Source of the DNA: Bacteroidetes bacterium UBA2364
GTDB lineage: Bacteria; Bacteroidota; Rhodothermia; Rhodothermales; UBA2364
Direction: 5' to 3'
DNA: 64,000 nucleotides
NCBI GenBank assembly: GCA_002344075.1
Contig: DDTM01000057.1
Span: forward strand, 24,053 to 88,052
Shown here: positions 19,857 through 48,270 of the stretch, in pieces
Position numbering within the stretch: the stretch's first letter is position 1
Layout of the letters: each line of letters starts with the position of its first letter
Notes under the pieces: model-generated
The model's database searches: none
What the model saw: the letters and a program-made list of their open reading frames with translations, nothing else
Told to the model about the DNA's origin: nothing
Made by a program: the position numbers and the translations under genes

Positions 19857-22115
19857 ATGCGCATCCTGTTTTTATTGGGCTTGTTGCTGACGCCAACGCT
19901 ATTGAAGGCCCAAGGCACGGTAGCCGTTATCCCCCAACCCACTTCCATTACACCCGAAAGTGGGTTTTTTACTTTCCAGCCTTCTACTAAAATTGTGGTT
20001 TTGCCTGCTGGAAACAAGCGGGCGAAAGAAGTAGCCGCTTTTCTGCGTGACTGGCTGAACCAACAAGTTGGCATTAGGGCAAGCCTTCAGGCAGGGAGTC
20101 GTATTCCTGCTAGCGCCATTGTCCTTGCTTTAGAACGTCACGACGACATTACAGCCGCCGAAGGCTACGAACTCCGCATTCGTAACGGCCAGATCCGTCT
20201 CTCTGCCTCCGAGGAAAAGGGTTTGTTCTGGGCCGTACAAACCCTGCGTCAACTATTTTCGCCACGTATTGAAGGTGCAAATCCGCCGAAAAATCACCCC
20301 ATTAGCCTTCCGGCAGTCACCATAAAGGATGCGCCAAAGTTTGGCTGGCGTGGTAGTTTATTAGACGTGGGGCGGCATTTCTTTCCGGTCTCTTTTGTGA
20401 AGCGATACATAGACCTCCTCGCACAGTATAAAATGAATGTCTTGCATTGGCACCTGACCGAGGATCAGGGCTGGCGCATCGAAATCAAGAAATATCCCAA
20501 ACTGACAGAAGTGGGCGCATGGCGAACCGAAGCAGACGGCTCGCGGTATGGTGGATTTTATACCCAGCAAGAAATTCGGGAAGTGGTGGAGTATGCGCGT
20601 CTGCGCAACATTACCGTTGTGCCGGAAATTGAGATGCCCGGCCATTCTTCGGCGGCACTTGTGGCTTATCCGCAGTTTTCTTGCTCTGGCGAGACCAAAA
20701 CTATACCTATTACTTGGGGTGTATTTAACGATATTTATTGTGTGGCCAAGCCCGAGACCATGGCTTTTTTGAAAGATGTTTTGGATGAAGTTATGAGGCT
20801 GTTTCCCTCTAAATTCATCCATATTGGTGGAGACGAAGCCCCAAAAACTGCATGGAATGACTCTGAACTAACACAAGTTTTTATGCGGGAAAAGGGGCTA
20901 AAAAACGGCGAAGAACTCCAAAGTTGGTTCATCAAAGAAATAGATGCTTATGTTCGGAGCAAGGGTCGGGCCATTATTGGCTGGGACGAGATTTTGGAAG
21001 GTGGGCTTGCGTCGGGCGCAACCGTACAGGCGTGGCGCGACATCGAACATGCCCGCACCGCCACCAAATTGGGCAATTACGTCATCTCGTCGCCAACGAG
21101 TCATGCCTATTTTGATGGGCAACCAGATGGTTTACCCCTTGAAAAAGTATATGGGTTTGAACCAATTCCGGCAGGACTAACCTCGGAGGAGGCCGCTCGA
21201 ATACTCGGAGGCGAGGCCAATATCTGGACGGAATACATCACGACCGCGAATTTTGATGCGATGGTTTTTCCGCGCCTCTTGGCCATGTCGGAAGCTCTTT
21301 GGACGAAAAGTCCCCGATCTTATGCCGACTTTAAAGCCCGCCTAGACCGTGATCATTACCTGCGTCTGCGGCAATGGGGCGTACAAGTTGGTCCAGAGAA
21401 CCGCTCGCTTATTACCATGAAGCCCGTTTTTGATGCAGCATCGGGCAGTATCCGTGTGCAAGTGGAGGCCAACGTTTCCGGTATGGCACTACACTACACT
21501 ACTGATGGAAGCACACCGAAACCATCCTCATCTCGTTATACCCCAGAAGTGGTCTTTGATAAACCCGGCGATGTCTTGATTTTACCTTTATTAAATGGGG
21601 AACCACTCTTGCGCTCGGTACGATTTACGGTTCTCGAAAAACACTTGGCCGTTGGAAAAAAAGTCACCCTCACCCATCCACCGTCACCGCGTTATACCGG
21701 AATGGGCGACCAAACCCTGACCGATGGTGTACAGGGGTCGTTTACCTTCAATGATGGCCTTTGGCAAGGTTGGGGAGACCAAGATTTTGAGGCTGTCGTG
21801 GATCTTGGTACGCCGCAACCGATAAAAGACGTGGCGCTCTCCACCCTTCAGGTAAGTGGTTCATGGATTCTTTTGCCTAAAGAAGTAACTTTCTCAACCT
21901 CGTCTGATGGCAAAACATGGAGCATGCCCGCTCGCCTTACCCACGGTGAATCTCCTCGAAAATTAGAGGGTTTCCGCTATCTTTTTGTTCAACCCTTTGG
22001 CGGAGAATCCATCCGATACCTCCGCGTTACAGCGAAACGAGACACCCTTCCTGATTGGCACAATGGGCGTGGAACCCCTGCATGGGTTTTTATAGACGAA
22101 GTGGTGGTACGATAG
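19857..22115 (+). CDS. beta-N-acetylhexosaminidase (GH20) with C-terminal F5/8 type C domain
   Basis: 'LHWHLTEDQGWRIEI' and 'IHIGGDEAP' (catalytic D-E pair) are present, with a signal peptide and a discoidin-like tail 'LTDG...WQGW...SSDGKTW'. Confidence 0.92.
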   Translation: MRILFLLGLLLTPTLLKAQGTVAVIPQPTSITPESGFFTFQPSTKIVVLPAGNKRAKEVAAFLRDWLNQQVGIRASLQAGSRIPASAIVLALERHDDITAAEGYELRIRNGQIRLSASEEKGLFWAVQTLRQLFSPRIEGANPPKNHPISLPAVTIKDAPKFGWRGSLLDVGRHFFPVSFVKRYIDLLAQYKMNVLHWHLTEDQGWRIEIKKYPKLTEVGAWRTEADGSRYGGFYTQQEIREVVEYARLRNITVVPEIEMPGHSSAALVAYPQFSCSGETKTIPITWGVFNDIYCVAKPETMAFLKDVLDEVMRLFPSKFIHIGGDEAPKTAWNDSELTQVFMREKGLKNGEELQSWFIKEIDAYVRSKGRAIIGWDEILEGGLASGATVQAWRDIEHARTATKLGNYVISSPTSHAYFDGQPDGLPLEKVYGFEPIPAGLTSEEAARILGGEANIWTEYITTANFDAMVFPRLLAMSEALWTKSPRSYADFKARLDRDHYLRLRQWGVQVGPENRSLITMKPVFDAASGSIRVQVEANVSGMALHYTTDGSTPKPSSSRYTPEVVFDKPGDVLILPLLNGEPLLRSVRFTVLEKHLAVGKKVTLTHPPSPRYTGMGDQTLTDGVQGSFTFNDGLWQGWGDQDFEAVVDLGTPQPIKDVALSTLQVSGSWILLPKEVTFSTSSDGKTWSMPARLTHGESPRKLEGFRYLFVQPFGGESIRYLRVTAKRDTLPDWHNGRGTPAWVFIDEVVVR

Positions 22116-22143
22116 TCCTCGCCAAACAAGCTTATAACAAGAC

Positions 22144-22192
22144 AAAGTTTTGCAGGTAGCCTTTCGTGCTTCATGCAAAACTTTTTGTTTTT
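22144..22192 (+). terminator. intrinsic terminator after the GH20 gene
   Basis: 11-bp stem AAAGTTTTGCA / TGCAAAACTTT with a 19-nt loop, followed by TTGTTTTTA. Confidence 0.55.
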
Positions 22193-22677
22193 ACGGCCTC
22201 ACGATACATTAAAGAAATCCATTGAACCCTAAAACAGGGCTACACCCTCCCCGTATTCCTCCTTTGCCGCCTTGTCTGGCTACTTTTTTACCGTCTTAAT
22301 GCTCTTTTCGTGGCTCTTGATCCAAATATCTGGTCAAAAAACCTAAATAAAGCATCTTTAGTTTTAGGGTATAGAAAATAAAAACCATTGCCCTGTATTC
22401 GTGTCTGGATTATGTCTGGTGAAAATACTGTATTTGAAACCCTGAGGCCTTTTGCCATATCCTCCAGAATGATTTACCTTCAACACCAGAGTTATAAAAG
22501 CGCTTTCGGTGGAGCAAAGAAATAAGTTCTTAAATGTTTCATGAAGAGCATCAGTTGGTTCGCCCCAGCCAATGTGACGAAAACAAAAGACCTCTTCCCT
22601 TTTCCATCAGTTAGCAAAATCCCAATGCCCAAAACCACTGGCAAAGTGCCTGTTAACCAATTAAATGATTTTTTAGT

Positions 22678-25600
22678 ATGAAACAGTTTTTATTGGTTTT
22701 ATCCCTCGCCACGTTACCGCTTATGGCTTTCGCACAATCCGGCAAAACCACAATCCTACAGGATGCGTCTGGGATCTCCCTTGTGGTAGATGGTAAGCCG
22801 CTCATGGTGAATGGTATGAACTGGGATTATTTCCCGATTGGTACCAACTTTAATTATAGCCTGTGGAATCAGTCTGAAGCAACCATTAAAGCGGCTTTAG
22901 ACGAAGAGATGGCGCTCTTGAAAAACATGAACGTAAACGCGATCCGTGTTTATACAGGCATTCCTAAAAAGTGGATCGAATATATCTACGACAATTATGG
23001 AATCTACACCATGCTCAATCATTCGTTTGGTCGGTATGGACTAACCATAGAGGGAGCTTGGGTTGCCAATACCGATTATGCAGACCCCAAAACCAAGGCA
23101 TTGCTTCTGAAGGAAGTCACCGAGATGGTGGCCAACTATAAAAATACCAGAGGCTTGCTTTTATATCTTTTGGGAAATGAAAATAACTACGGCCTCTTTT
23201 GGTCGGGTGCCGAGACAGAAGACATTCCAATGGCAGATAGGCAATCTACCAAAAGAGCAAGATATATGTATAAACTCTTCAATGAGGCTGCCCTTGCGAT
23301 GAAGGCCATTGACAAAAGCTATCCGGTTGCCTTGTGTAATGGCGACTTGCTTTTCTTGGATATTATCGCGCAAGAATGTCCGGATGTGGATATTTTTGGG
23401 ACAAATGTGTATCGTGGTGTTTCTTTTGGAGACTTGTTCGAGCGGGTAAAAAAAGAGTACGGGAAGCCAGTTCTTTTTACAGAGTTCGGCTCGGATGCCT
23501 TTAATGCACTCACCAACGACGAAGACCAAAAAGCACAAGCCTATTACCTAAAAGAGAATTGGAAAGAAATTTACCTCAATGCCAAGGGCTTGGGTAAAGC
23601 AGGGAACTCCATTGGCGGATTTACTTTTCAATTTAGTGATGGATGGTGGAAATATGGACAAACCAAAAATTTGGATATTCATGACAGCAACGCCTCGTGG
23701 GGGAACGGAGGCTATCAGTTCGACTATCGTGAAGGCCAGAACAACATGAATGAAGAGTGGTTTGGCATCTGTGCAAAAGGGCCGACCAATGCACAAGGCT
23801 TATACCAACTCTATCCGCGTGCTGCTTATTATTTATTGAAAGATGCGCATCAACTAAATCCTTATACAAATGGGACGACGGCGGCAAAAGTAGAGGCCCA
23901 TTTTGCGGCAACGAACATCATGGATGCTGTCTTGAGGGCACGATCAGACAAAGCCGCCATTCAAGGACAATCCGGCGAAAAAATTAAACTATCGCGATTT
24001 ACTGCAGAGTTTTCCACCTTCAACACTGGTGGGAGCCTCATTTCAACACCAACAACAGCGGCGTCCAACAGTAGCGATTACCCCAAACAATTAGGGTTCG
24101 ATCATATGCAGTCGTTTTATGTTGGGATAGAGGCAAAACCTGTTGCCAACATGATGGCCAATGTCACCTTTAATGTCTTAGGAAATGTGGCTCAAAATCC
24201 GATAGACCAAATCTTTTATGAAAACCGAGGCCGACCCGTTGTTTTAAATTCTGACAATGGAAACGTGCAATTGGATGATGCAAACCGCGTGCAAGTATAT
24301 AGTGCAAGCTATAATTGGAATCATGACTGGTTTAATCTAAACGGATTTTACAGAACGGGACACTATCACTGGGGCTACGAAGGCGACTTCTTCGGCCTGT
24401 ATCCTGAAGCCAATTATGGCCCAATGATTGACATTTATAATGCCACAGCGCCTCTTGGTTTTGAAGTAGAAGGCAAGAAAGCGCTCAAACATTTCAAGGC
24501 TGCTTTCGGGCCACAATTATGGTGGGGTGCAAATCCGGCATTTTTGCTCAAATATGGCCGCAAAGTCGGAAACTCGGAACTGACGGGCCTATATCACGAA
24601 GACCTACAAGAACAAGGGAATGTACAAAGCTCGTTTGCCGTCCCACAACCCAAAACAAGAAGGGTAACGCTGCATTTAAACCGCAAATTAAATAAATTCA
24701 TTTTCGATTTAGGTGGAATTTGGGCAGGCCAACCCCTCAATGGTAGGGTGTACCAAGTACAACGAGGTGCCGAGGGAAATTATCAGGTATTTCAGCACAA
24801 AATTGAAGGCAAAGACAACTGGGGCGGAAAAGCAAAAATCACCTATACGGGTGGGAAGTTCAATTGGTATGCCCAAGGGGCTGCCCAAGGTCTGGTGGCT
24901 TCCGGCGGCGCTGATCTAACGAAAACCTTTACCGGATGGCGCTTGAAAGACAGCGGAAGTGGCAATCAGTACAATTTTTTAACGGGCTTTACCCTTGCTA
25001 CTGGCCAACTACAAATTGCTCCCAACTTTTTGTGGCAAAAACCCATTGAAGGCCCCATCAGTACCGATGTTCCCGCACCGGGAAGGCCGCGAAACATCCT
25101 CACAGACCCGTTTGCGGTACGGGCAAATAGAGAGCAAATTGCCGGAGAAATCTTATTCAGCTACGATCCAACACCCGCCTCTTGGATGTACGAGTGGGAC
25201 AACGACCGCGCAGAAGATGCACCTTTTGCAATGAACCTGGGCTTTATTTATCGTCACCTCCCCACCACCCAAGATGCCGCAATTGGGATATTCCCAGATG
25301 GCAGAAGTTCTTTCCCATTCAATGGGGCACCTCCAGCCAAAGATCTTTGGGAAATACATTCCAGAATGGTCTCGAAGATTAGTCCGGAATTGGGGATTAT
25401 CGCCAACCTTTTTGCCGGAACTGCACAAGCAAACGGGAGTGATCCGCGAACCGTCACAAGATTTGGTGGAGATCTGCGGGCCGTATTTAATAAAAGTAAA
25501 TTAATTGCTTCGGCAAAAATAAATGATTGGGGACCGTTCGATTATCACCGAGATTTTAACCTGACCTTCCCTATTCAATTAATGGCAGATTTATCTACCG

Positions 25601-25815
25601 AAATTGCAAAGCCAGATTGGTTTGCATTGCCAGGAACGCGCATTGGATTACGGGGTGTCTGGAGGACTTTAGACCGCTATTCCCCACGCTATAATCCAAC
25701 GCAAATGTTGGATGCTTATGGGAAATGGGTACCCAATCCCAATGCTGTTGGTTATCCAAATGGTACGGAATGGGAAATTAGAACCTATGTCCATATCAAC
25801 TTGGGAAACAAATAA
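22678..25815 (+). CDS. secreted clan GH-A glycosidase domain fused to a ~620-aa putative beta-barrel region
   Basis: Signal peptide. (beta/alpha)8 signatures are 'NAIRVY', acid/base 'LLGNENNY' (Glu codon 23179-23181) and nucleophile 'LFTEFGSD' (Glu codon 23482-23484). The C-terminal region is rich in alternating amphipathic strands. Confidence 0.75.
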   Translation: MKQFLLVLSLATLPLMAFAQSGKTTILQDASGISLVVDGKPLMVNGMNWDYFPIGTNFNYSLWNQSEATIKAALDEEMALLKNMNVNAIRVYTGIPKKWIEYIYDNYGIYTMLNHSFGRYGLTIEGAWVANTDYADPKTKALLLKEVTEMVANYKNTRGLLLYLLGNENNYGLFWSGAETEDIPMADRQSTKRARYMYKLFNEAALAMKAIDKSYPVALCNGDLLFLDIIAQECPDVDIFGTNVYRGVSFGDLFERVKKEYGKPVLFTEFGSDAFNALTNDEDQKAQAYYLKENWKEIYLNAKGLGKAGNSIGGFTFQFSDGWWKYGQTKNLDIHDSNASWGNGGYQFDYREGQNNMNEEWFGICAKGPTNAQGLYQLYPRAAYYLLKDAHQLNPYTNGTTAAKVEAHFAATNIMDAVLRARSDKAAIQGQSGEKIKLSRFTAEFSTFNTGGSLISTPTTAASNSSDYPKQLGFDHMQSFYVGIEAKPVANMMANVTFNVLGNVAQNPIDQIFYENRGRPVVLNSDNGNVQLDDANRVQVYSASYNWNHDWFNLNGFYRTGHYHWGYEGDFFGLYPEANYGPMIDIYNATAPLGFEVEGKKALKHFKAAFGPQLWWGANPAFLLKYGRKVGNSELTGLYHEDLQEQGNVQSSFAVPQPKTRRVTLHLNRKLNKFIFDLGGIWAGQPLNGRVYQVQRGAEGNYQVFQHKIEGKDNWGGKAKITYTGGKFNWYAQGAAQGLVASGGADLTKTFTGWRLKDSGSGNQYNFLTGFTLATGQLQIAPNFLWQKPIEGPISTDVPAPGRPRNILTDPFAVRANREQIAGEILFSYDPTPASWMYEWDNDRAEDAPFAMNLGFIYRHLPTTQDAAIGIFPDGRSSFPFNGAPPAKDLWEIHSRMVSKISPELGIIANLFAGTAQANGSDPRTVTRFGGDLRAVFNKSKLIASAKINDWGPFDYHRDFNLTFPIQLMADLSTEIAKPDWFALPGTRIGLRGVWRTLDRYSPRYNPTQMLDAYGKWVPNPNAVGYPNGTEWEIRTYVHINLGNK

Positions 25816-25866
25816 TGTAATTGAAGGGCAGTCCATTTATCATATTCACAGTCAATCTGAAATTCG

Positions 25867-27270
25867 ATGAAAAACAATAAATCAATGAATCGTTTGCTCA
25901 GTGTAATAGGAGTTGTTTTTTACACACTATTATTGAGTGGTTGCCAAAACGATGACAGCGTTTTTACGGCTGCAACCTATCCAAATAACCCCGATGTTTT
26001 TCTGGATTCATTTTCTGGAGGCTTGAATTATGCCGCATTTTCAGGTACTGTACCCACGGCTTTTCAGGTGGATAAAAAAGTTACCTATAACAATACGGCC
26101 CAATCCATGCGGTTTGATGTACCCAACGCAGGAGACCGCTTAGGAACATATGCCGGAGGTGCTTTTTTTACGCATGTTGGCAGAGACCTGACACAATACG
26201 ATGCCCTTACCTTTTGGGTAAAAGCGACGGAGGCCGCAACCATCGGCGCCATTGGTTTTGGAGTTGACTTAGGCGAGAACAAGTTTCAAGCAGGCTTTAG
26301 CGACCTGAAAGTGGGTACTACATGGCAAAAAGTCATCATCCCAATTCCCAATCCAGCCGCTCTGAAAAATGAAAAAGGGTTGTTTTATGTTTCTGCGGGC
26401 AATCAGAGTGGTAATGGATATTCTTTTTGGGTAGACGAAGTGCAGTTCGAAAAATTAGGAACCATTGCGCATCCACAACCCTCCATATTGAACGGCGAAA
26501 ATCAAAATAAATTTGGCTTTGTTGGAATTAATACCAATGTTTCCAACCTACAGGTCCTCTTCAATATGCCTTGGGGAGAAAATAAGGGAGTTAATGTTAC
26601 TCCACATTATTTTACTTTCATCAGCTCAAAGCCAGAAGTTGCTTCCGTAGATACAAAAGGTGTTGCAACCATTGTAGGACAAGGCACGACCACCATAACG
26701 GCTAAATTAGGAGATATTACGGCAAAAGGTAGCCTTACCCTCACTGGTACAGGTGTTTTTGTTCCAGCACCAACACCCAATAGAGCCGCAAGCCGTGTCA
26801 TTTCCATATTTAGTGATGGCTATACCAATGTTCCGGTAGAATATTATAATGGTTATTGGGCACCCTACCAAACCACCCAATCTGCAGATTTTAAAATTAA
26901 TAATGACAATGTATTGAATTATACGGCGTTTAATTTTGTGGGAATCCAGTTTGCAAATCCCGTTATTAATGCCAGTGCAATGACCCATTTTCATGCAGAT
27001 ATTTTCATACCCGGTACACTCGCAGCAGGCGCAACGTTCAAAATCCAACTTGTTGACTTTGGTGCAGATGGTGTTTTTGGAGGGGGGAACGACAAAAATC
27101 ATACGACCACGTACACGGCACCGACCCTTGGTGGAAATCGGTGGATAAGCATTGATATTCCTTTCTCAGTAATGACTGGGCTAACAAGTAGAACAAGTTT
27201 GGCACAGATTGTTTTTGAAGGGACGAATATCAGTAATTTTTATGCTGATAATATTTATTTTTACAATTAA
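25867..27270 (+). CDS. surface glycan-binding-type lipoprotein (CBM-like / Big_2 / CBM-like)
   Basis: Lipobox 'LLSGC'. Central Big_2-like segment 'VASVDTKGVATIVGQGTTTITAKLGDITAKGSLTL', flanked by jelly-roll-like modules ('YSFWVDEVQFEK', 'ISIFSDGYTNV...NIYFY'). Confidence 0.65.
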   Translation: MKNNKSMNRLLSVIGVVFYTLLLSGCQNDDSVFTAATYPNNPDVFLDSFSGGLNYAAFSGTVPTAFQVDKKVTYNNTAQSMRFDVPNAGDRLGTYAGGAFFTHVGRDLTQYDALTFWVKATEAATIGAIGFGVDLGENKFQAGFSDLKVGTTWQKVIIPIPNPAALKNEKGLFYVSAGNQSGNGYSFWVDEVQFEKLGTIAHPQPSILNGENQNKFGFVGINTNVSNLQVLFNMPWGENKGVNVTPHYFTFISSKPEVASVDTKGVATIVGQGTTTITAKLGDITAKGSLTLTGTGVFVPAPTPNRAASRVISIFSDGYTNVPVEYYNGYWAPYQTTQSADFKINNDNVLNYTAFNFVGIQFANPVINASAMTHFHADIFIPGTLAAGATFKIQLVDFGADGVFGGGNDKNHTTTYTAPTLGGNRWISIDIPFSVMTGLTSRTSLAQIVFEGTNISNFYADNIYFYN

Positions 27271-28142
27271 TGCACTCCACTTTTAAAACCACAAATACAA
27301 TGAGAAATTTTAGATATACCTCTATATATTGGGGTCTCACTGGCATTTTGTTCTTTTTCTTGACAAGTGGTTGCGATCTAAAAGAAGGGCAAAATCTACC
27401 TGAAAGAAATTGGAGCCTGACTTGGTCAGACGAGTTCGATGGACAAGCCGGAGCACTACCTAATGCTCAGAAATGGGCCTTTGATATTGGCAGAGGCGAT
27501 AATGGATGGGGTAATTCGGAGCTACAATACTACACCAACAGACCACAAAATGCTGCTTTAGACGGAAATGGAAATCTCGTTATTACGGCTATAAAGGAAA
27601 ACTTCGGAGGTGCTAGCTATACCTCTGCTCGTCTTAAAACAAAAGATATTTTCACCCAAAAATATGGCCGTTTTGAGGCCCGTATTCAAACGCCATATGG
27701 CCAAGGAATTTGGCCCGCTTTCTGGATGTTGGGCGATAACATCGAAACCGCAACTTGGCCTTTGTGTGGTGAAATAGATGTCATGGAACAACGTGGACAA
27801 GAGCCTTCTGTTCTGAATGGCTCCCTCCATGGTCCCGGCTTTTCTGGTGCAAATCCGTTAACGGGAAAATATGTCCTTAAAAACAGCCGATTTGATACCG
27901 GATTTCATGTCTATGCGGTTGAGTGGTTTGAAGATAGAATTGACTTTTTTGTAGACGACCTGCTCTATCATCGGATCACCAAAAAAGATATTCCTGCAAA
28001 TGGACAATGGGTTTATGATCATCCATTCTTTATGATTCTGAATGTGGCAGTAGGTGGAAACTATGTGGGAGCGCCTAATACGGGCACCAATTTTCCACAA
28101 AAAATGATCATTGACTACGTGAAGGTTTATCAGGAAATGTAA
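27270..28142 (+). CDS. GH16 endo-beta-1,3-glucanase (laminarinase-type) lipoprotein
   Basis: Catalytic 'GEIDVMEQ' (ExDxxE), with 'WSDEFDG', 'WPAFWML' and 'YAVEW'. The ATG overlaps the upstream TAA (TAATG). An alternative start at 27300 (MRNFRY...) gives a cleaner lipoprotein signal 'LTSGC'. Confidence 0.9.
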   Translation: MHSTFKTTNTMRNFRYTSIYWGLTGILFFFLTSGCDLKEGQNLPERNWSLTWSDEFDGQAGALPNAQKWAFDIGRGDNGWGNSELQYYTNRPQNAALDGNGNLVITAIKENFGGASYTSARLKTKDIFTQKYGRFEARIQTPYGQGIWPAFWMLGDNIETATWPLCGEIDVMEQRGQEPSVLNGSLHGPGFSGANPLTGKYVLKNSRFDTGFHVYAVEWFEDRIDFFVDDLLYHRITKKDIPANGQWVYDHPFFMILNVAVGGNYVGAPNTGTNFPQKMIIDYVKVYQEM

Positions 28143-28186
28143 TATTTTTTGCATGAATAACCCATTTTTTCCTAAAACTCTCAAGA

Positions 28187-31100
28187 ATGAAACAGGTTGT
28201 CTTCGGTAATACTACATTTTATCAAATTAGTAATATTGATAAAATGAGACCATTTTTTATGACAATTTTGAGTTCCTCGAATCATTGGATGTTTATTTCG
28301 AGTAACGGCGGACTTACAGCAGGTCGGACAAGTGCTGACTTTTCGCTTTTTCCTTATTACACCGAAGATAAAATCGCAGATTCTGCCGAATATACTGGCT
28401 CTAAAACCATTATTCGAGGTAAAAATAAGGCAGGTAGTTACGTCTGGGAACCCTTCTCTACGAGAAATCAAGGTCATTTTGAAACCCAGCGGAATTTGTA
28501 TAAAAGCGTTTATGGAAATGAGCTTATTTTTGAAGAAATTAACCAGACTCATGGGCTAATTTTCAGATACCAGTGGAGCAATGCTGCCCAATATGGCTTT
28601 GTTCGAAAGGCAACATTGGTTAATCTAAACACCGAAGATTGCCAAATTGAGGTACTTGATGGTCTCCAGAATATACTTCCGGCAGGAGTTGGCAGCAATT
28701 TACAAAACTTTTACAGTAATTTGGTGGATGCCTACAAACAAAGTGAGTTGGTAGTGCCATCAGGCTTGGGCATCTACGCCCTTTCAGCCATTATTGTGGA
28801 TCGGGCGGAGCCCAGTGAGGCACTCAAAGCGAATACTGTTTGGTCGTTTGGGCTTCGCAACCCTATTAATTTACTCTCTAACTTTCAATTAGAATCATTT
28901 AGGAATGGAATGACCATCCTTCCTGAAATTGAAAACAAAGGCGAAAAGGGAGCTTATTTTATCTGTGAAACCCTAACACTACCTGCAAATAATGCTAAAG
29001 AATGGTATATGGTGGCCGATGTTCATAAAAATCACAGTGAGGTCATCCATTTAATTGAAGCCCTTAAACAACCTGACCGTTTGATAAAAGGTGTTTTAGC
29101 AAATGTAATGGAAGGAACAAAGAATCTCCTTAAACTAGCTTGTAATGCAGATGGATTGCAAACCACATCTGACCCCCTTAAAGACTCCAGACATTTTTCC
29201 AATGTCTTATTCAACATTATGAGAGGTGGTATTTTTGATGATCAATACTTTATTTCAAAATCAGATTTTCTATCTTACCTCAACAAAGCAAATAAACATA
29301 TTTTTGAACTAATTTCAGTAGAAGCGATAAAATGGCCTGAAAAATTTGAATTTAATTTTATAAAAAAATCAGATCTATTTAATAAAAATATTGACTTTCA
29401 AAGACTAAGTAAGGAATATTTACCTTTGTATTTCAGTCGAAGACATGGGGATCCCTCGCGTCCATGGAATCAGTTTCATGTAAATACCATACATGAAACT
29501 GATGGCAGCAAAGTGCTGGATTATCAAGGGAATTGGCGTGATATTTTTCAAAATTGGGAAGCATTGGCTATATCTTTTCCGGACTATGCAGAAAGTATGA
29601 TTTATAAATTCTTAAATGCAACCACGTTTGAAGGATACAACCCTTACAGAGTAAGTAAAGATGGTTTTGATTGGGAAATTATTGAGCCAGATGACCCTTG
29701 GGCATATATCGGATATTGGGGAGACCATCAAGTTATTTATTTGTTGAAGTTCTTGGAATTTATAACTGCTTATAAGCCTGGTTTATTAGAGAATTTATTT
29801 GATAAAGAATGCTTTGTCTATGCCCATATCCCTTATAAAATAAAAAAATATCAAGACATTATTCTCAATCCCAAGGATACCATTACATTCGATCATGCAA
29901 TGGACCTACGTATTCGGGAAGAAAGAACACTTATTGGATCTGATGCTTGTTTGATTAAAGATGAAAATAATAACATTCACCATGTTAACTTCATTGAAAA
30001 AATTCTCGCTGTTATTTTATCTAAGATATCTAACTTTATCCCCGAAGCGGGTATTTGGATGAATACTCAAAGACCTGAATGGAATGATGCGAACAATGCG
30101 TTGGTTGGAAATGGTGTTTCGATGGTTACGTTGTATTATTTACGTCGCTTTTTGGTCTTTTTTGAAAAGATATTAAATACATCTACAGTTAGCGAAGTTA
30201 AAATTTCGCAAGAACTCATTGACTGCTACAAGAATATTCGGAAAATTCTGGAAGAAAATGTAATTTTACTCGCGTCAAAAATCAGCGATAATGATCGTAA
30301 AAATATTGTGGATCAAATTGGTGAAGCGGCAAGTTCCTACCGCTGGCATGTATATGATCATGGATTTTGGGGTAAAAAGCGCACTATCTCAATTGAAGGT
30401 ATTCAACGATTTAACAAGATATCTTTACAGTTTATTGATCACGCTATCGAATCCAACCAAAGACCAGATGGGCTATATCATGCATATAATTTAGCCTCAT
30501 TTGAAGGTGAAACTGTGAAGATATCTCACCTTACCGTGATGTTAGAAGGCCAAGTAGCTGCGCTGAGCGCGGGAATATTAGATGCGAAACAAGTGGTGCA
30601 GGTTTTAAATGCATTAAAGCAAAGCCCCTTATATGACCAAGACCGAAATAGCTATATTTTATATCCAAATAAGAAGTTGCCGGGCTTTCTGGAAAAAAAC
30701 ACATTTGATGAATCGGAAATAAAAGACTGCCAATTAATTATTGAATTAATTGACAAAGGAGATAAGTCAATTATCGAGAAAGATATATTAGGATATTATC
30801 ATTTTCATAAAGATTTCAAAAATATTAATGATTTAAAAGATGGATTAACAAAATTAATTTCTCATAATTATGTACACTATAATAAAACTGAATTAGATAA
30901 AATATATTCCATCTACGAAAAAATATTTAATCACAAAGCCTTTACAGGGAGATCCGGTACTTTTTATGCCTATGAAGGGTTAGGTTCGATTTATTGGCAT
31001 ATGGTTTCAAAGTTATTATTGGCTGTTGTAGAAAATATTTTTAAAGCATATCACGAAAAAGCAGATAAAAAACACTGCGATGCTCTGATTAAGCACTACT

Positions 31101-31594
31101 ATGACCTCTACGAAGGTCTCGGAATTCATAAGTCCCCTCAAGCATATGGCGCATTTCCTACGGATGCTTATTCGCATACGCCTTCCAAAAAAGGTGCACA
31201 ACAACCGGGAATGACTGGACAGGTGAAAGAAGATATAATCTGCCGTTGGGGTGAATTAGGTGTTCATATACAAAATGGACAGATTCATTTTGAACCTATA
31301 ATGCTTGAAAAGAAGACATTCAAGGACGATCCCTTCTTGTTTGTTTATACGGATGTTGAAAATAAACAAAACAAGTGCCTTGTACCTAAAAACAGTTTGA
31401 CATTTACTTACTGCCAGGTTCCCATAATTTATGAGTTTGGAGATAAAGTAAGCATGACGGTAATACTAAAAGATCAAGAAGAGATGATATTTAATACTCA
31501 TATTCTATCATCCGAATTAAGTGAAGCTATATTTTTGAGAAAAGGAGTTGTACAATGTATAAAAATAAGTATTAATCCTAATACATTAATTTGA
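28187..31594 (+). CDS. large cytoplasmic protein, putative beta-glucan phosphorylase (GH94/GH149/GH161-like)
   Basis: 1135 aa with no signal peptide. 'NWRDIFQNWE' resembles the GH94 'G(F/Y)RDSNQD' block, and 'QRPEWNDANNAL' resembles the GH94 catalytic 'ADWNDCLN' block. It lies between GH16 and GH30/MFS. The family call is from memory of motifs, not from a search. Confidence 0.5.
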   Translation: MKQVVFGNTTFYQISNIDKMRPFFMTILSSSNHWMFISSNGGLTAGRTSADFSLFPYYTEDKIADSAEYTGSKTIIRGKNKAGSYVWEPFSTRNQGHFETQRNLYKSVYGNELIFEEINQTHGLIFRYQWSNAAQYGFVRKATLVNLNTEDCQIEVLDGLQNILPAGVGSNLQNFYSNLVDAYKQSELVVPSGLGIYALSAIIVDRAEPSEALKANTVWSFGLRNPINLLSNFQLESFRNGMTILPEIENKGEKGAYFICETLTLPANNAKEWYMVADVHKNHSEVIHLIEALKQPDRLIKGVLANVMEGTKNLLKLACNADGLQTTSDPLKDSRHFSNVLFNIMRGGIFDDQYFISKSDFLSYLNKANKHIFELISVEAIKWPEKFEFNFIKKSDLFNKNIDFQRLSKEYLPLYFSRRHGDPSRPWNQFHVNTIHETDGSKVLDYQGNWRDIFQNWEALAISFPDYAESMIYKFLNATTFEGYNPYRVSKDGFDWEIIEPDDPWAYIGYWGDHQVIYLLKFLEFITAYKPGLLENLFDKECFVYAHIPYKIKKYQDIILNPKDTITFDHAMDLRIREERTLIGSDACLIKDENNNIHHVNFIEKILAVILSKISNFIPEAGIWMNTQRPEWNDANNALVGNGVSMVTLYYLRRFLVFFEKILNTSTVSEVKISQELIDCYKNIRKILEENVILLASKISDNDRKNIVDQIGEAASSYRWHVYDHGFWGKKRTISIEGIQRFNKISLQFIDHAIESNQRPDGLYHAYNLASFEGETVKISHLTVMLEGQVAALSAGILDAKQVVQVLNALKQSPLYDQDRNSYILYPNKKLPGFLEKNTFDESEIKDCQLIIELIDKGDKSIIEKDILGYYHFHKDFKNINDLKDGLTKLISHNYVHYNKTELDKIYSIYEKIFNHKAFTGRSGTFYAYEGLGSIYWHMVSKLLLAVVENIFKAYHEKADKKHCDALIKHYYDLYEGLGIHKSPQAYGAFPTDAYSHTPSKKGAQQPGMTGQVKEDIICRWGELGVHIQNGQIHFEPIMLEKKTFKDDPFLFVYTDVENKQNKCLVPKNSLTFTYCQVPIIYEFGDKVSMTVILKDQEEMIFNTHILSSELSEAIFLRKGVVQCIKISINPNTLI

Positions 31595-31622
31595 ATAATA
31601 TTTATTAATTTGAATAATATTT
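31585..31622. repeat. perfect 19-nt tandem duplication at a gene junction
   Basis: ATTAATTTGAATAATATTT occurs at 31585-31603 and again at 31604-31622. Copy 1 contains the TGA stop of the upstream gene, and copy 2 ends 1 nt before the GH30 ATG. Confidence 0.95.
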
Positions 31623-31623
31623 T

Positions 31624-33117
31624 ATGAGACACTTTATTTTAACTTTTATTTTCTTTCTAGGAATAGATATGGCTATATCGCAACCTAAGAATTGGCAAAT
31701 AAATGCTTGGAAGTCTTCTGCTGACGGCCATGCATTAACAAAAGTAAACACTCAAAATGTCTCAAACAATCCTAATGTTATTATTCGGATTCAGCCTAAG
31801 ATTAAATTTCAGAAAATATTAGGATTTGGTGGCGCTTTTACTGAAGCGACTACACACTTATTACAGAAACTGAGTGAGGCAAATCGAAAAAAAATATTAA
31901 ATGCTTATTTTGGACAAGAAGGAGCAAACTATTCTCTTTGTAGAACCCAGATAAATTCATCAGATTTTTCTATTGGTCATTATGCATATGCAATAACGCC
32001 GGGCGATACGCTATTGAAACATTTTGATATAGGTCATGATGAAGAGACCATTATCCCTATTATCAAAGAGGCGCAAAAAATTTCTAAAGAAGGCTTTAAT
32101 CTGATTGCTTCTCCGTGGACAGCGCCTCCATGGATGAAAGACAATAACCATTGGGTAGGAGGAAAACTTAAGCCAGAGTATTATGCTACTTGGGCATTGT
32201 ATTTTTCAAAATATCTTGATGCTTACAAAAAGCATCAAATCCCTTTCTGGGGTATTACTGTAGAGAATGAGCCGAATGGAAATGGTAATAACTGGGAAAG
32301 TATGCACTATACCCCACAAGAAATGACCAATTTTGTACAACACTACTTAGGGCCTCATCTTGAAAAAAATGGGTATGGAAATATTAAGATTTTGGGTTAT
32401 GATCAAAATAGAGCAGATCTAAAAAATTGGGTGGATGAAATGTATCGCACACCAGAAAGTAGCCATTATTATCATGGAACAGCCATCCATTGGTACGAGA
32501 GTACCTACGATTATTTCCCAGAAGCGTTGGATTATGCGCATCATAAAGTACCCGGAAAATATTTAATTCAAACTGAAGCCTGTATAGATGCAGAAGTTCC
32601 GGTATGGCAGGACGATCAATGGTACTGGCAACCCCATGCCACAGATTGGGGTTATGATTGGGCACCTGAACATGAAAAATACCTTCATCCCAAATATGCA
32701 CCCGTTTACCGTTACGCAGAAGACATTATCGGTTCCTTAAACCATTGGGTAGAAGGTTGGATTGATTGGAACATGGTGTTAGATCAACAAGGCGGGCCAA
32801 ATTGGTTTGAAAATTGGTGCATTGCGCCCATTATTGTGAATGTGGAAAAGGATGAAGTCTATTTCACGCCTTTATATTATGTGATGTCGCATTTTAGCAA
32901 ATTTATCAGACCGGGAGCGCATAGAATTGGCCTCTCCAATCTAAACAGTACCGTCCATGCGACCGCTGTCGAAAATCCAGATCATTCTATTGTCTTGGTA
33001 TTGTTAAATAAGGAGAAAAAAGCCCAGACCGTCGCAATTCACTTAGATGGTTTTTCTCACATATTTAATTTAGATCAAGAGAGTTTGCAAACCATAACCC
33101 TTAAACCCCAAAATTAG
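31624..33117 (+). CDS. GH30 (subfamily 1, glucosylceramidase-like) beta-1,6-glucosidase, secreted
   Basis: 'GFGGAFTEA', 'ASPWTAPPWMK', acid/base 'WGITVENEP' and nucleophile 'LIQTEAC' are collinear with GH30_1. It has a signal peptide. Confidence 0.9.
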   Translation: MRHFILTFIFFLGIDMAISQPKNWQINAWKSSADGHALTKVNTQNVSNNPNVIIRIQPKIKFQKILGFGGAFTEATTHLLQKLSEANRKKILNAYFGQEGANYSLCRTQINSSDFSIGHYAYAITPGDTLLKHFDIGHDEETIIPIIKEAQKISKEGFNLIASPWTAPPWMKDNNHWVGGKLKPEYYATWALYFSKYLDAYKKHQIPFWGITVENEPNGNGNNWESMHYTPQEMTNFVQHYLGPHLEKNGYGNIKILGYDQNRADLKNWVDEMYRTPESSHYYHGTAIHWYESTYDYFPEALDYAHHKVPGKYLIQTEACIDAEVPVWQDDQWYWQPHATDWGYDWAPEHEKYLHPKYAPVYRYAEDIIGSLNHWVEGWIDWNMVLDQQGGPNWFENWCIAPIIVNVEKDEVYFTPLYYVMSHFSKFIRPGAHRIGLSNLNSTVHATAVENPDHSIVLVLLNKEKKAQTVAIHLDGFSHIFNLDQESLQTITLKPQN

Positions 33118-33119
33118 TC

Positions 33120-34541
33120 ATGAGTAACCAGATTAATCAGAGTGTACCGATCGTCCAGAAAATGGCCTTTGGTGCTGGTCACTTGGTGAATAATCTTTTC
33201 CCCGGTGCCTTGGGGGTTTTTTCCTTTTTCCTACTGACAGGATTTGGGATTGATCCCATTTATGCAGGTATGTTGTCTGCTATTCCCCGTTTTATAGATG
33301 CTTTATCAGACCCAATTATGGGATTCATCTCTGATAATACGAAGTCAAAATGGGGACGAAGAAGGCCCTATATCTTTGCTGGTGCTATCTTAGCAGGTGT
33401 TTTCTTTTTTATACAGTGGCAAATGAGTGAGACAAACGGGACTGTTTTTAATTTTTGGTATTTCTTGATTACCTCTATTATATTCATCTTATTTAATACC
33501 ATGTTCTCTACACCATTAATTGGTTTGGGGTATGAAATGACAAGTGATTATAAGGAAAGAACAAGGCTGATGGGTTTTTCTCAGACGGTAAGCCAACTGG
33601 CTTGGATGATAGTGCCCTGGTTTTGGGTATTGGTTGCTGATCCAAACTTGTTTGCTACACAAGCTGAAGGTGTTCGCACGTTATCTATTCTGGTCGGTGT
33701 TTCGTGTATTATTCTCGGTATTTTACCGGCTATTTTTTGCAAAGAAGTAGCTGCTTCTCATATTGAGAACCAAGCGGATTTAACCCTGAAGAATACATTC
33801 AATAACTTAGGGAAATTATTTAAAGATATTAAGAACATGAGTCGTAATATTCCATTTATGCGCCTCTGTGGAGCGACTTTTCTGGTCTTTAATGGTTTTC
33901 AAATGGTTGCTTCATTTAGTATTTTTATTATTGTTTTTTATATGTTTAATGGAAGTTACGAGGCAGCGGGTACTTTACCTGCCTGGTTTTCTACCATTAG
34001 TGCCCTTGCAACCGCTTTTTTGGTTATCCCTATCGTTACCATGATGGCCAATAAATATGGAAAACGGACGGCATTTGTGATTTCTACTTTTATCTCGATT
34101 GTTGGGTATATTTTGAAATGGTGGGGATTTAATCCAGAAAATCCTTGGATGATTTTTATGCCTGTTCCATTTATTGCATTTGGATTAGGGGGGCTATTCA
34201 CTTTAATGATGAGTATGACCGCAGATGTGTGTGATTTGGACGAGTTGGAAAATGGTATGCCGCGAAAAGAAGGAACCTTTGGCGCCATTTATTGGTGGAT
34301 GGTTAAACTTGGTCAGGCCCTGGCTTTGTTCTTAGGAGGAATTGTATTAAAAGTAGCTGGATTCAACCAGAATGCAGCTGTACAAACTGCCGAAACGATG
34401 ACGCTTTTACGTATTTTTGATATTGCCTTGCCAGCCATAACAGCCGCGCTGGCTATTTGGGTAATGTGGAACTACGACTTATCCGAGGAGAAAGCAAAAG
34501 AAATTAAAGCGGAACTTGTGCGTAGAAGAGGCGAGTTATAA
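33120..34541 (+). CDS. glycoside-pentoside-hexuronide (GPH)/MFS sugar:cation symporter
   Basis: 473 aa with about 12 TM spans. N-terminal 'FGAGHLVNNL' and 'RFIDALSDPIMGFISDNTKSKWGRRRPY' are typical of MelB/GPH carriers. Its start lies 2 nt after the GH30 stop. Confidence 0.85.
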   Translation: MSNQINQSVPIVQKMAFGAGHLVNNLFPGALGVFSFFLLTGFGIDPIYAGMLSAIPRFIDALSDPIMGFISDNTKSKWGRRRPYIFAGAILAGVFFFIQWQMSETNGTVFNFWYFLITSIIFILFNTMFSTPLIGLGYEMTSDYKERTRLMGFSQTVSQLAWMIVPWFWVLVADPNLFATQAEGVRTLSILVGVSCIILGILPAIFCKEVAASHIENQADLTLKNTFNNLGKLFKDIKNMSRNIPFMRLCGATFLVFNGFQMVASFSIFIIVFYMFNGSYEAAGTLPAWFSTISALATAFLVIPIVTMMANKYGKRTAFVISTFISIVGYILKWWGFNPENPWMIFMPVPFIAFGLGGLFTLMMSMTADVCDLDELENGMPRKEGTFGAIYWWMVKLGQALALFLGGIVLKVAGFNQNAAVQTAETMTLLRIFDIALPAITAALAIWVMWNYDLSEEKAKEIKAELVRRRGEL

Positions 34542-34571: not shown

Positions 34572-34622
34572 AAAAGGAAATGGGAGGCTCTCAAATGAAA
34601 TGTAGGCTCCCATTTTCCTTTG
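34572..34622. terminator. candidate bidirectional terminator between convergent genes
   Basis: AAGGAAATGGGAG ... CTCCCATTTTCCTT forms a ~13-bp stem with one bulge and a 20-nt loop. The flank on the minus-strand side is T-rich. Confidence 0.45.
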
Positions 34623-46775: not shown

Positions 46776-46785
46776 ATATATAAAT

Positions 46786-47259
46786 ATGATTGTTAAAACA
46801 CCTTATAAACATAGAATAATCCGATTTATTGAACTTATATACTTCGATGAATGGACGATAAAATGTTACACCATTACTCAATCAGAGGATCATATTGCTC
46901 CAAAAATTGTCATGGCCATTAAAAATCAACTTTCAGCCTGGATTCAACATTCAGAACGAACAAACCTTACACACTACAATACAGCAACACTGATTATTCA
47001 CCAAGGGAAAGAAGGTTACTATGCTATTATAGCATGGTGGATAGATGAAAATATGTTACAATTGTTTGCTTATTTTTCTCCAGATCCTGTGGTTAGAACT
47101 TTTCAAATGATCTCTGATAAAGGGATTGTGTCATGTGTTTGGGAAATGGCCATTCTGTGGTTTGAACGAAATGCTTGGGTGGAAGAAGTGATGTTACAGA
47201 ATAATAATCCATATGCAAAAATAAATTACTTAAACCGTCAATTAAATACAACTTTATGA
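46786..47259 (+). CDS. hypothetical protein
   Basis: 157 aa from the Met at MIVKTPYK; the longer ORF would overlap the upstream gene. Its stop overlaps the GNAT start (ATGA). No motif recognised. Confidence 0.5.
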   Translation: MIVKTPYKHRIIRFIELIYFDEWTIKCYTITQSEDHIAPKIVMAIKNQLSAWIQHSERTNLTHYNTATLIIHQGKEGYYAIIAWWIDENMLQLFAYFSPDPVVRTFQMISDKGIVSCVWEMAILWFERNAWVEEVMLQNNNPYAKINYLNRQLNTTL

Positions 47260-47714
47260 GTTATTTCATCCGAGAATCAACCCTTAACGATGTAGATTCT
47301 GTTAGTCAACTTTTTGACTTATACCGTGTTTTCTATAAAAAAGAAAGCGACATAGAGGCTGTAAAGTGTTTTATAACAGAACGTATGGAGCAAGGTGATT
47401 CTGAGATCTACCTTGCAGAAACTTCTAAAGGGCAAATAGTGGGTTTTACGCAATTATATCCACTTTTTTCTTCTACCCGTATGAGACGCCTTTGGCTTTT
47501 GAATGATTTATATGTAGAAAAATCATTCAGGGGACAAGGAATTTCAAAAGCACTCATTGAATCGGCAAAACAGCTCGCTTATAGAACGAACTCCTGTGGC
47601 CTTTTATTGGAAACAGGCATTACGAACACGGTTGGTAATCAACTCTACCCTTCGACAGGGTTTGAAATACAAAGTAATTCTAATTTTTATTTTTGGACCA
47701 ATAACCGCACTTAA
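47256..47714 (+). CDS. GNAT-family N-acetyltransferase
   Basis: 152 aa. 'LWLLNDLYVEKSFRGQGISKALIESA' is the acetyl-CoA-binding motif A (R/Q-x-x-G-x-G/A). Confidence 0.85.
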   Translation: MSYFIRESTLNDVDSVSQLFDLYRVFYKKESDIEAVKCFITERMEQGDSEIYLAETSKGQIVGFTQLYPLFSSTRMRRLWLLNDLYVEKSFRGQGISKALIESAKQLAYRTNSCGLLLETGITNTVGNQLYPSTGFEIQSNSNFYFWTNNRT

Positions 47715-47715
47715 C

Positions 47716-48270
47716 ATGACAAGATCACAACTGAATCCCATGCCTGCTTATTTTGATCGGTACATTTATATGACCGATGATGTGACGGTGGAGCAAGCCT
47801 TGCAAACCAGCCTTAATGAACTCGAACAAGCACCATTGAACACTTGGCAGATGGTGGGGTCGGCTATTTATGAACCTGGAAAGTGGACCATAAATGATAT
47901 ATTACAACACATTATTGACACCGAACGGGTGTTTTGTTATCGTGCGTTGTCGTTCGCACGCGGCGAAAAAGACGTCCGGCCATACGATGAACACCACTAC
48001 GGCAAAATGGCCAAGGCCACCCAAAGAACTCTTGAACACCTACTCGAAGAGGCTATTGCCGTTCGCAAAGCCACGCTTAGATTATTCCGGAGTTTTGATG
48101 AAGAAATGCGAAAACGTATTGGAGAAGGATTTAAAGGCCCTTATTCAGTTCATTCCATCGGTTTTATTTTGGCAGGACACCAAAGATGGCACTTTAGGAT
48201 CATTCAGGAACGGTATCTGCCGCTGGTTTTAGAAGGCATAAACAGCGTAAAAACACATTGTAGAGGCTAG
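47716..48270 (+). CDS. DinB-family protein
   Basis: Start at MTRSQLNP. 'WTINDILQHIIDTERVF' and 'LAGHQRWH' fit the DinB_2 His pattern. Confidence 0.7.
   Translation: MTRSQLNPMPAYFDRYIYMTDDVTVEQALQTSLNELEQAPLNTWQMVGSAIYEPGKWTINDILQHIIDTERVFCYRALSFARGEKDVRPYDEHHYGKMAKATQRTLEHLLEEAIAVRKATLRLFRSFDEEMRKRIGEGFKGPYSVHSIGFILAGHQRWHFRIIQERYLPLVLEGINSVKTHCRG

Follow-up and report, generated by a model that had tools for sequence, protein, structure and literature searches.

A probable outer-membrane barrel fused to a glycanase-like domain in a β-1,3-glucan operon without SusC/SusD from a sludge Rhodothermales bacterium

The stretch analysed here, referred to below as the window, is 64 kb of contig DDTM01000057.1 (positions 24,053 to 88,052) from Bacteroidetes bacterium UBA2364, and all coordinates given are window positions on the forward strand. 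It carries six plus-strand open reading frames (ORFs) at 22678–25815, 25867–27270, 27270–28142, 28187–31594, 31624–33117 and 33120–34541, separated in that order by 51, -1, 44, 29 and 2 bp, which very probably constitute a β-1,3-glucan catabolic operon. We call these genes g1 (encoding a fusion protein), g2 (its partner lipoprotein), g3 (GH16), g4 (GH149), g5 (GH30) and g6 (MFS_2). The first of them seems to represent a new family of outer-membrane proteins within a β-glucan utilisation locus; its product very probably consists of a β-barrel, which would reside in the outer membrane, fused to a domain resembling clan GH-A glycanases. The observation is more than chance, for the gene order recurs in dozens of species. 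We judge it somewhat better than an even bet that the window copy is a horizontally acquired, reduced version of a widespread six-to-eight-gene β-1,3(/1,6)-glucan operon that works without the SusC/SusD pair (SusCD), and we see the chances as evenly balanced that g1 and g2 provide the uptake route in place of SusCD.

The g1 protein (22678–25815; 1045 aa) begins with a signal peptide of the ordinary type at residues 1–20, and a clan GH-A TIM-barrel domain occupies residues ~21–395 (22738–23862). Pfam reports only a partial GH2_C TIM barrel at residues 72–279 and leaves the remaining ~750 residues without a match. Two motifs that mark the acid/base and the nucleophile in clan GH-A, LGNE168 and TE269FG, do not vary among 41 g1 homologues. 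When the AlphaFold2 (AF2) model of the full-length protein was compared with the PDB by Foldseek, the top matches were GH158 structures (9p26, 9oro, 9p25 and BuGH158, 6pal; E = 1e-12 to 1e-9), the GH157 structure 9fz9 also matched (4e-9), and both ranked ahead of GH2 glucuronidases. The Foldseek probability is 1.00, in agreement with the GH-A (β/α)8 fold, for which an acid/base on an NE motif and a nucleophile Glu carried by strand 7 are characteristic. The PDB label of 6pal is endo-laminarinase, and GH157 is an endo-β-1,3-glucanase family as well.

The relationship in sequence is far more distant. The best PDB match of the g1-family profile is GH158(Pro) at E = 0.058, with both catalytic motifs aligned, and g1 is 14–15% identical to GH158 in the Foldseek alignments; on these values g1 is not a GH158 member by sequence. 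The GH158 (BuGH158 and GH158(Pro)) and GH157 (LaGH157) enzymes resemble g1 in fold, in their NE and TEFG motifs and in their β-1,3-glucan locus context, but unlike g1 they have chains of ~400–530 residues, too short to include a barrel of ~600 residues. Judged by its model, the g1 N-terminal domain is a distant GH-A lineage that is structurally nearest to endo-β-1,3-glucanases, and its substrate specificity is presumably of that kind. Other family names attached to it were rejected. Some databases label such proteins GH2 or β-galactosidase; PF02836 matches at its positions 36–219 of 302 only, there is no GH2_N or GH2 Ig domain, and the NCBIfam β-galactosidase models score 16–26 bits against cut-offs of ~1000–1280. 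GH5_46, a name suggested by NCBI annotations and by lists of laminarin polysaccharide utilisation loci (PULs), fares no better, as its characterised member CbGH5 is a 576-aa GH5-CBM6 protein of other architecture and no link to g1 was found.

Two linker helices (residues 402–431; 23881–23970) lead from the GH-A domain to a β-barrel of ~24 strands that spans residues 436–1043 (23983–25806). We re-predicted the barrel alone (residues 430–1045) with divergent homologues of 30–66% identity, and AF2 returned a predicted local distance difference test score (pLDDT) of 93.0 and a predicted template modelling score (pTM) of 0.89. The top 50 PDB matches of this model in Foldseek are all outer-membrane β-barrels, each with probability at least 0.99, and include TonB-dependent transporters of the BtuB/PfeA/FepA type, MtrB, maltoporin, MOMP, Occ porins and LptD. 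Loops of 18–36 residues alternate in the model with turns of 2–3 residues, and such an alternation, read as is customary for outer-membrane proteins, indicates ~24 membrane strands, with both ends of the barrel and the GH-A linker in the periplasm. The signal peptide, the modelled barrel, the loop pattern and the fact that the named homologues are all from diderm bacteria are what is generally expected of an outer-membrane barrel. The original prediction, made from the letters and their translations, had called g1 a GH-A::barrel fusion, and the confident barrel model, its fifty fold matches and the invariant GH-A motifs bear this out.

The C-terminal domain of g1 is absent from Pfam and NCBIfam. 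Pfam finds neither Plug nor TonB_dep_Rec in the protein, and nothing that plainly resembles a TonB box follows the signal peptide; in addition, its N-terminal domain is a TIM barrel and its template modelling scores (TM-scores) to TonB-dependent transporters are ~0.33–0.38, so g1 is not an unrecognised SusC. Homologues of ~570–615 aa that appear to be stand-alone barrels were considered as evidence that the barrel exists as a module of its own and were set aside, as P0159 begins at base 2 of a 2.1-kb contig and is a fragment. These apparent stand-alone barrels (P0159, the similar ~570–615-aa matches and L084) may be truncated genes.

The product of g2 (25867–27270; 467 aa) has the lipobox LLLSGC followed by QNDD, and that of g3 has FLTSGC followed by DLKEG, in agreement with the earlier reading of both as lipoproteins. 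The acidic residues after the lipid-modified Cys in g2 and g3 resemble the Bacteroidota lipoprotein export signal. An N-terminal β-rich domain, a Big-like Ig domain at residues 250–293 (Pfam, 6e-9) and a C-terminal β-rich domain make up g2, and outside the Ig domain nothing recognisable was found in Pfam, NCBIfam or the PDB. We propose that g2 is the surface glycan-binding partner of g1. An internal repeat relating its N- and C-terminal domains was considered, and the BLASTP comparison was not significant. In the NCBI records the g2 start lies six codons downstream (window 25867–25884), giving 461 aa versus 467 aa, and this shorter form, MNRLLSV..., has the more typical lipoprotein signal peptide.

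The g1 family is large and its neighbourhood is strongly conserved. Database searches give more than 5500 homologues, with ~70% identity across Flavobacterium, Saprospiraceae, Mariniphaga and Bacteroidales, and their annotations are 'glycosidase', 'GH5 family', 'GH2 TIM barrel' or 'hypothetical' only. A survey with one genome per species, which yields a lower bound, places g1 relatives in at least 597 species of Flavobacteriales, Chitinophagales, Saprospirales, Bacteroidales, Cytophagales and Balneolales. We scored synteny in the 80 best g1 loci, with evaluable loci as denominators, and the conserved order is g1-g2-GH16-GH149-(GH17)-GH30-MFS, often behind a regulator of the BguR type (see below). 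The next gene downstream of g1 is g2 in 72 of 73 loci, with a median gap of 39 bp, GH16 is nearby in 66 of 68 and GH149 in 51 of 63, and in 48 of 62 a GH17-like gene of ~419 aa separates GH149 from GH30. GH30 (43/61) and the MFS transporter (37/61) are also common near g1, and these two counts are limited by the 10-kb flanks. SusC (4/80) and SusD (3/80) were counted within 10 kb of g1 and are rare there, as is GH3 (8/80).

The family also extends to Myxococcota and Cloacimonadota. In the Myxococcota metagenome-assembled genome (MAG) L082 the order is GH17, GH1, g1 (48% identity), two small ORFs, GH16, ROK and GH149 (39% identity), and just after GH149, at 20826–23192 of that locus, lies a multi-repeat g2 homologue (37% identity, E = 4e-76). 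This g2 homologue has extra Big_2 repeats plus two g2-like repeats; the two small ORFs directly after g1 encode 189 and 221 aa, the larger of which matches the C-terminal end of g2 (hhalign probability 85%). The Cloacimonadota MAG L083 has g1 (38% identity) beside GH30, MFS, two GH16 genes and a LacI/GntR-type regulator. Another of its genes (15853–17661) encodes a 602-aa protein with a GH2_C-like GH-A domain that is 26% identical to the g1 N-terminal domain, and the C-terminal module of this protein resembles g2 residues 105–195 (E = 3e-5); this suggests that the g2 N-terminal domain may be a portable module of the carbohydrate-binding type, and it is the strongest indication of such a role for the g2 domains, though a modest one. 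In both MAGs g1 is the sole recognised barrel among the called genes, several of which have no Pfam assignment. Its presence in β-glucan clusters of several phyla indicates that the link between g1 and β-1,3-glucan catabolism is ancient and robust.

The position of g1 and g2 within these loci is informative. BguR, the β-glucan utilisation regulator of Formosa agariphila, is encoded immediately upstream of SusC-SusD (bioRxiv 10.64898/2026.01.10.698779). In 33 of 67 relatives a regulator with Y_Y_Y and GerE domains (~940 aa) lies at most 800 bp upstream of g1, and its architecture is that of BguR; thus g1-g2, as the first genes after a BguR-type regulator, hold the operon position of SusC-SusD in canonical laminarin PULs. 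Many relatives also have a direct repeat, CTATACA-N4-CTATACA or CTATACATTACCACAACA, in either orientation ~100–350 nt upstream of g1 (at -312 in locus L001, -271 in L002, -126 in L008 and -113 in L048). This repeat, a candidate BguR operator, occurs both in loci where a BguR-type regulator was detected and in loci where none was. Upstream of the window g1 such an operator was sought and rejected, as the repeat of the relatives is absent there: the 400 nt before g1 contain no CTATACAT-type repeat within one mismatch, and the entire window contains no TGTATAK-N4-TGTATAK with two or fewer mismatches.

Neither SusD nor a SusC/SusD pair was found by Pfam in the six genes and 20 flanking ORFs, and tblastn queries for BguR, GH17, GH3 and SusD, drawn from related loci, gave no match in the 64 kb. 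A SusC query matches weakly (25% identity) to a lone, unrelated TonB-dependent receptor at 39760–42330; apart from this receptor, Pfam shows no Plug or TonB_dep_Rec domain in the six genes and the 20 flanking ORFs. The locus is consequently not a PUL in the strict (PULDB) sense, which calls for an adjacent susC/susD pair. The original prediction had listed the SusC/SusD pair, GH3, GH17 and a linked regulator as missing; all of these are indeed missing from the window, and the lack of a regulator and of GH17 is true of the window copy but not of the family, in which both are frequent as described above.

The remaining genes encode a coherent set of β-glucan enzymes and a transporter. The g3 protein (27270–28142; 290 aa) has a Pfam GH16 domain (PF00722; 1.6e-23, 83.5 bits) with the catalytic motif EIDVME at E168–E173 (ExDxxE), and its nearest solved relatives are all β-1,3-glucanases or laminarinases (2hyk, 2e-78), which makes it a laminarinase-type endo-β-1,3-glucanase lipoprotein; a place in subfamily GH16_3 would be in keeping with this. 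The g4 protein (28187–31594; 1135 aa) scores 1643 bits against the GH149 equivalog NF058639 (cut-off 1150) over positions 8–1134 of 1134, and its residues 4–1130 align to the phosphorylase Pro_7066 (6hq6; E = 0). On these matches g4 is a GH149 β-1,3-glucan/oligosaccharide phosphorylase, and it has no signal peptide and is predicted to be cytoplasmic. The g5 protein (31624–33117; 497 aa) has Pfam GH30 (PF02055; 2e-76, 257.7 bits) and GH30C (PF17189; 48.3 bits) domains, and since its signal peptide is of the ordinary type and lacks a lipobox, a periplasmic location is probable. Among its PDB relatives human GBA, the GH30_1 glucocerebrosidase, is the closest (3e-86), ahead of 5ngk (4e-49); the PDB label of the latter reads just 'Glucosylceramidase', and we take it to be BT3312, a GH30_3 endo-β-1,6-glucanase. 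Against the BT3312 equivalog g5 reaches 237 bits, below the cut-off of 700. We consider it GH30_1-like and a putative β-1,6-glucosidase with a debranching role. Finally, g6 (33120–34541; 473 aa) matches Pfam MFS_2 (1.9e-63; 214.9 bits versus a threshold of 27) and would be an inner-membrane sugar:cation symporter of the MFS_2/GPH type. The GH16, GH94/149-like and GH30 assignments of the original prediction are upheld by these scores and PDB relatives, as is its picture of six co-directional, tightly spaced genes by the ORFs themselves. Its 'GPH symporter' needs more caution, as MFS_2 membership is clear but the TIGR00792 (GPH) score of 194.2 bits falls below the cut-off of 231.35; g6 is by its sequence MFS_2/GPH-like and not a certified GPH member.

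This gene complement bears on the direction in which a glycan might cross the barrel. Exopolysaccharide export pores, which periplasmic glycanases accompany, have a periplasmic domain at the N-terminus and a barrel at the C-terminus, an arrangement of which g1 is reminiscent, and it could accordingly be the export pore of a β-glucan secretion system (compare BcsC, PgaA and AlgE) with a trimming hydrolase attached. The operon, however, contains no glycosyltransferase or synthase, all the partners of g1 are catabolic (GH16, GH30, GH17, GH149, the MFS importer and BguR) and g1 has no TPR domain. We disfavour this explanation and regard it as highly improbable.

An uptake route that fits the predicted locations of the proteins can instead be proposed, with entry through the barrel as its conjectural step. 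Most of it follows the original prediction, to which we add the periplasmic cleavage by g1. The GH16 lipoprotein would cut the polymer at the cell surface, where the g2 lipoprotein would hold the glycan, and oligosaccharides would pass the outer membrane through the ~24-strand g1 barrel without TonB. At the periplasmic mouth of the barrel, where the topology would place it, the GH158/157-like domain of g1 would cleave the incoming β-1,3 chain, and the periplasmic GH30 would take off β-1,6 branches, a role drawn from the Formosa enzymes (PMC6484121, PMC6246565). The MFS_2/GPH symporter would import short laminari-oligosaccharides, which GH149 would phosphorolyse to glucose-1-phosphate in the cytoplasm; passages of PMC5827456 and PMC6484121 describe phosphorolytic activity of GH149. 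We tentatively put forward, at somewhat less than even chances, that g1 and g2 represent a new class of TonB-independent outer-membrane glycan importer, in which a barrel with an attached periplasmic endo-β-1,3-glucanase is capped or fed by a surface lipoprotein. If this is true, the g1 enzyme could, by hydrolysis, act as a sink or a ratchet on the chain as it enters, and g1/g2 would functionally replace SusC/SusD in at least ~600 species of Bacteroidota, Rhodothermota and Balneolota, reaching Myxococcota and Cloacimonadota.

Several points weigh against an importer of this kind. The TM-scores of the g1 barrel to known barrels are ~0.2–0.4; taken with the uniformity of its matches, such low values imply that the C-terminal domain is a large barrel of a new family. 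The g1 sequence ends ...INLGNK, with a non-aromatic last residue, unlike many outer-membrane protein β-signals. In the full-length AF2 model the TIM barrel is good but the whole is poor (pLDDT 63.7, pTM 0.46) and the arrangement of domains is not fixed; at this pTM the model gives no reliable position of the GH-A domain with respect to the barrel. The similarity of g2 to characterised binding modules consists of weak hints only, and no RNA run contains the locus. The window covers 64 kb, and a SusCD laminarin PUL or other importer may exist elsewhere in the genome. Lastly, the layout of g1 (an N-terminal passenger, helices and a C-terminal barrel) is also that of an autotransporter.

This layout underlies the main alternative, namely that g1 is a self-anchored, autotransporter-like endo-β-1,3-glucanase of the cell surface, with uptake left to an unlinked SusCD or other TonB-dependent transporter or to a general porin. 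The succession of signal peptide, passenger, helical linker (residues 402–431) and barrel is what it would predict, and BuGH158 (6pal), one of the nearest fold relatives of g1, is a cell-surface enzyme. The g1 family moreover occurs in Myxococcota and other groups that have neither Bacteroidota lipoprotein export nor the type IX secretion system (T9SS), where self-export would be useful, and the limited portion of the genome in the window, 64 kb, leaves room for an unlinked transporter. A type Va autotransporter in the narrow sense was rejected, as g1 has no Pfam autotransporter match and ~24 strands over ~610 aa. Classical autotransporter barrels have 12 strands, roughly half the number in g1; the structures nearest in fold to the g1 barrel are barrels with a transport function, and the top 50 matches include no autotransporter. 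The locus already encodes a surface GH16 lipoprotein, g1-g2 stand in the SusC-SusD position behind BguR, and SusC or SusD is near g1 in just 3–4 of 80 loci. On balance we find the self-anchored glucanase rather unlikely and continue to prefer the uptake role for g1 and g2.

Comparison with known systems helps to define what is new in the locus. The SusC/SusD laminarin PULs of Formosa agariphila, Formosa sp. and Bacteroides uniformis share with it GH16, GH17, GH30_1, GH149 and MFS, as far as described in the relevant passages of PMC6246565 and PMC5827456, and likewise open with an outer-membrane barrel and a lipoprotein. The present locus differs from them in having no SusC/SusD and, in that place, a barrel of ~24 strands to which a GH-A domain is fused, together with an unrelated Ig/β-sandwich lipoprotein. 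Kuhaudomlarp et al. (2018) placed Bacteroidetes GH149 genes either in PULs or in susCD-less 'CAZyme clusters' (clusters of carbohydrate-active enzyme genes) with GH30_1 and GH16/17 (PMC5827456, Fig. 7C), and to judge from that part of the paper the latter are probably the same kind of cluster as the window locus. Its passages on 'SusC' and 'gene cluster', as distinct from any on 'outer membrane', mention neither an outer-membrane component nor the g1/g2 pair. SusCD-less GH149 clusters as such are therefore not new, in view of those passages (PMC5827456); what is added here is the GH-A::barrel fusion and the conserved g1-g2 core. Our literature search found no paper on the g1 family, the g1 barrel or the g1-g2 pair.

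Among outer-membrane systems, SusCD, BtuB-BtuG, LptD-LptE and MtrB-MtrC are like g1/g2 in fold class, in size (22–26 strands) and in having an adjacent lipoprotein gene, but g1 is unlike them in its lack of a plug or TonB box, in its TM-scores of 0.3–0.4 and in having an enzyme as its N-terminal domain. Maltoporin (LamB) and chitoporin are TonB-independent oligosaccharide channels, as is proposed for g1, and maltoporin is among the fold matches of g1; they are smaller trimers of 16–18-strand barrels and have no enzyme domain. GluM of Corallococcus is an Oar-like protein of the TonB-receptor type and is not known to have a GH-A domain. GluM/Oar resembles g1, in a comparison by description only, as an outer-membrane barrel credited with β-glucanase activity, GluM having been cited as an outer-membrane barrel β-1,6-glucanase (PMC10800785). 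The GH17-MFS protein of Formosa, described as an unprecedented fusion of a transporter and a carbohydrate-active enzyme in the inner membrane (PMC6246565), is a precedent for coupling of a laminarin hydrolase to a transporter, and g1 would be its outer-membrane counterpart.

The host of the window copy is a Rhodothermales bacterium from sludge. PheT and the proteins of the locus share at least 90% identity with proteins from Rhodothermales MAGs, for which the label 'Bacteroidetes Order II' is also in use; in the GenBank records GH149 and g2 go by the name 'hypothetical protein'. The contig is part of JGI metagenome 3300013771, and bioreactor sludge is the source of the sequencing runs that contain it. 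The operon had been described as a laminarin-type locus; the β-glucan enzyme set agrees with this, but with a sludge Rhodothermales host and not a marine flavobacterium, 'β-1,3(/1,6)-glucan' is a safer term than 'laminarin'.

The GC content at third codon positions (GC3) of the six operon genes is 0.30–0.46, compared with 0.48–0.51 in the flanking genes. A chimeric assembly was considered as the cause of this drop and rejected, as four independent sludge run assemblies span both junctions in single contigs of 52–73 kb, with 0–8 single-nucleotide differences over 18 kb. The nearest relatives of g1 have 71–75% identity, and most of those with a name belong to Flavobacterium; no flanking repeats, tRNA or integrase that would mark an island were found. 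We read the locus as horizontally acquired from a Bacteroidota donor of lower GC, with BguR and GH17 lost or not transferred. A perfect 19-nt tandem duplication (ATTAATTTGAATAATATTT, twice, at 31585–31622 on the plus strand) extends across the GH149 stop codon and takes up the 29-bp spacer in front of GH30, the site at which 48 of 62 relatives have the GH17-like gene; speculatively, it may be the scar of a rearrangement at the GH17 site.

These same features raise the question of whether the cluster is a decaying or accessory fragment, either silent or supplementing another complete β-glucan system. The absence of BguR, of the candidate operator repeat and of GH17, the deviating GC3 and the tandem duplication at the GH149/GH30 junction would all suit such a fragment. 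Its six ORFs, on the other hand, are intact, full length relative to their homologues and have kept their catalytic motifs, the locus is stable across the four sludge assemblies, and terminators bracket a compact unit (see below). We think a decaying fragment improbable and favour a reduced operon.

Hairpins bound the operon on both sides. A terminator-like hairpin at 22135–22193 (plus strand; 26-nt arms, 81% complementary, with a 7-nt loop and a T run) follows the upstream GH20 gene and is the likely 5' boundary of the transcription unit. The non-coding leader and promoter region then extends from 22194 to 22677 (plus strand, 484 nt; the whole intergenic region is 40% GC). Downstream, a second terminator-like hairpin at 34576–34618 (GGAAATGGGAGGCT...AGGCTCCCATTTTCC, then TTT; no strand assigned) precedes the convergent α/β-hydrolase gene. 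With these hairpins bracketing six tightly spaced genes, the six appear to form a single transcription unit preceded by a leader of 484 nt. The leader contains no perfect Bacteroidota -7 box (TAnnTTTG), and consensus promoter and terminator scans gave counts no better than shuffled sequence and were given no weight. An Rfam element in the leader was also rejected, as the sub-threshold mir-19 match is a chance match to the hairpin at 22135–22193.

The upstream flank encodes GH127, VKOR, a CotH protein with a T9SS tail and GH20. The third of these (15750–18083) resembles CotH kinases and has a sorting domain of the T9SS at its C-terminus, and it has no apparent link to the operon. On the opposite strand downstream lie genes for the α/β-hydrolase, an acyl-CoA ligase, an SSF transporter, KAS III, the lone TonB-dependent receptor and a MarR protein. 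A 2099-aa ORF near the window end (57524–63823) likewise shows no apparent operon link. A second low-GC stretch (~0.385) occurs at 44238–48270, where the M1-peptidase gene has a GC3 of 0.34 versus ~0.49 in its neighbours, and this may be another acquired segment.

Laminarin and related β-glucans are among the largest aquatic carbon fluxes and are major constituents of fungal and algal biomass. Glycan use by Bacteroidota is normally equated with SusC/SusD, and both PUL prediction and the use of SusC/D expression as an ecological proxy of glycan uptake rest on that pair, so a β-1,3-glucan operon with another outer-membrane component would escape such methods. Its carriers number at least 597 species, of lineages found in fresh water, sludge, soil and the sea. 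If g1 and g2 do import glycans, they would represent a second, TonB-independent form of outer-membrane glycan uptake and a rare fusion of an enzyme with a channel of the outer membrane; should g1 prove to be no more than a self-anchored glucanase of the cell surface, it still represents an undescribed lineage of GH-A joined to a new barrel family that is absent from Pfam.

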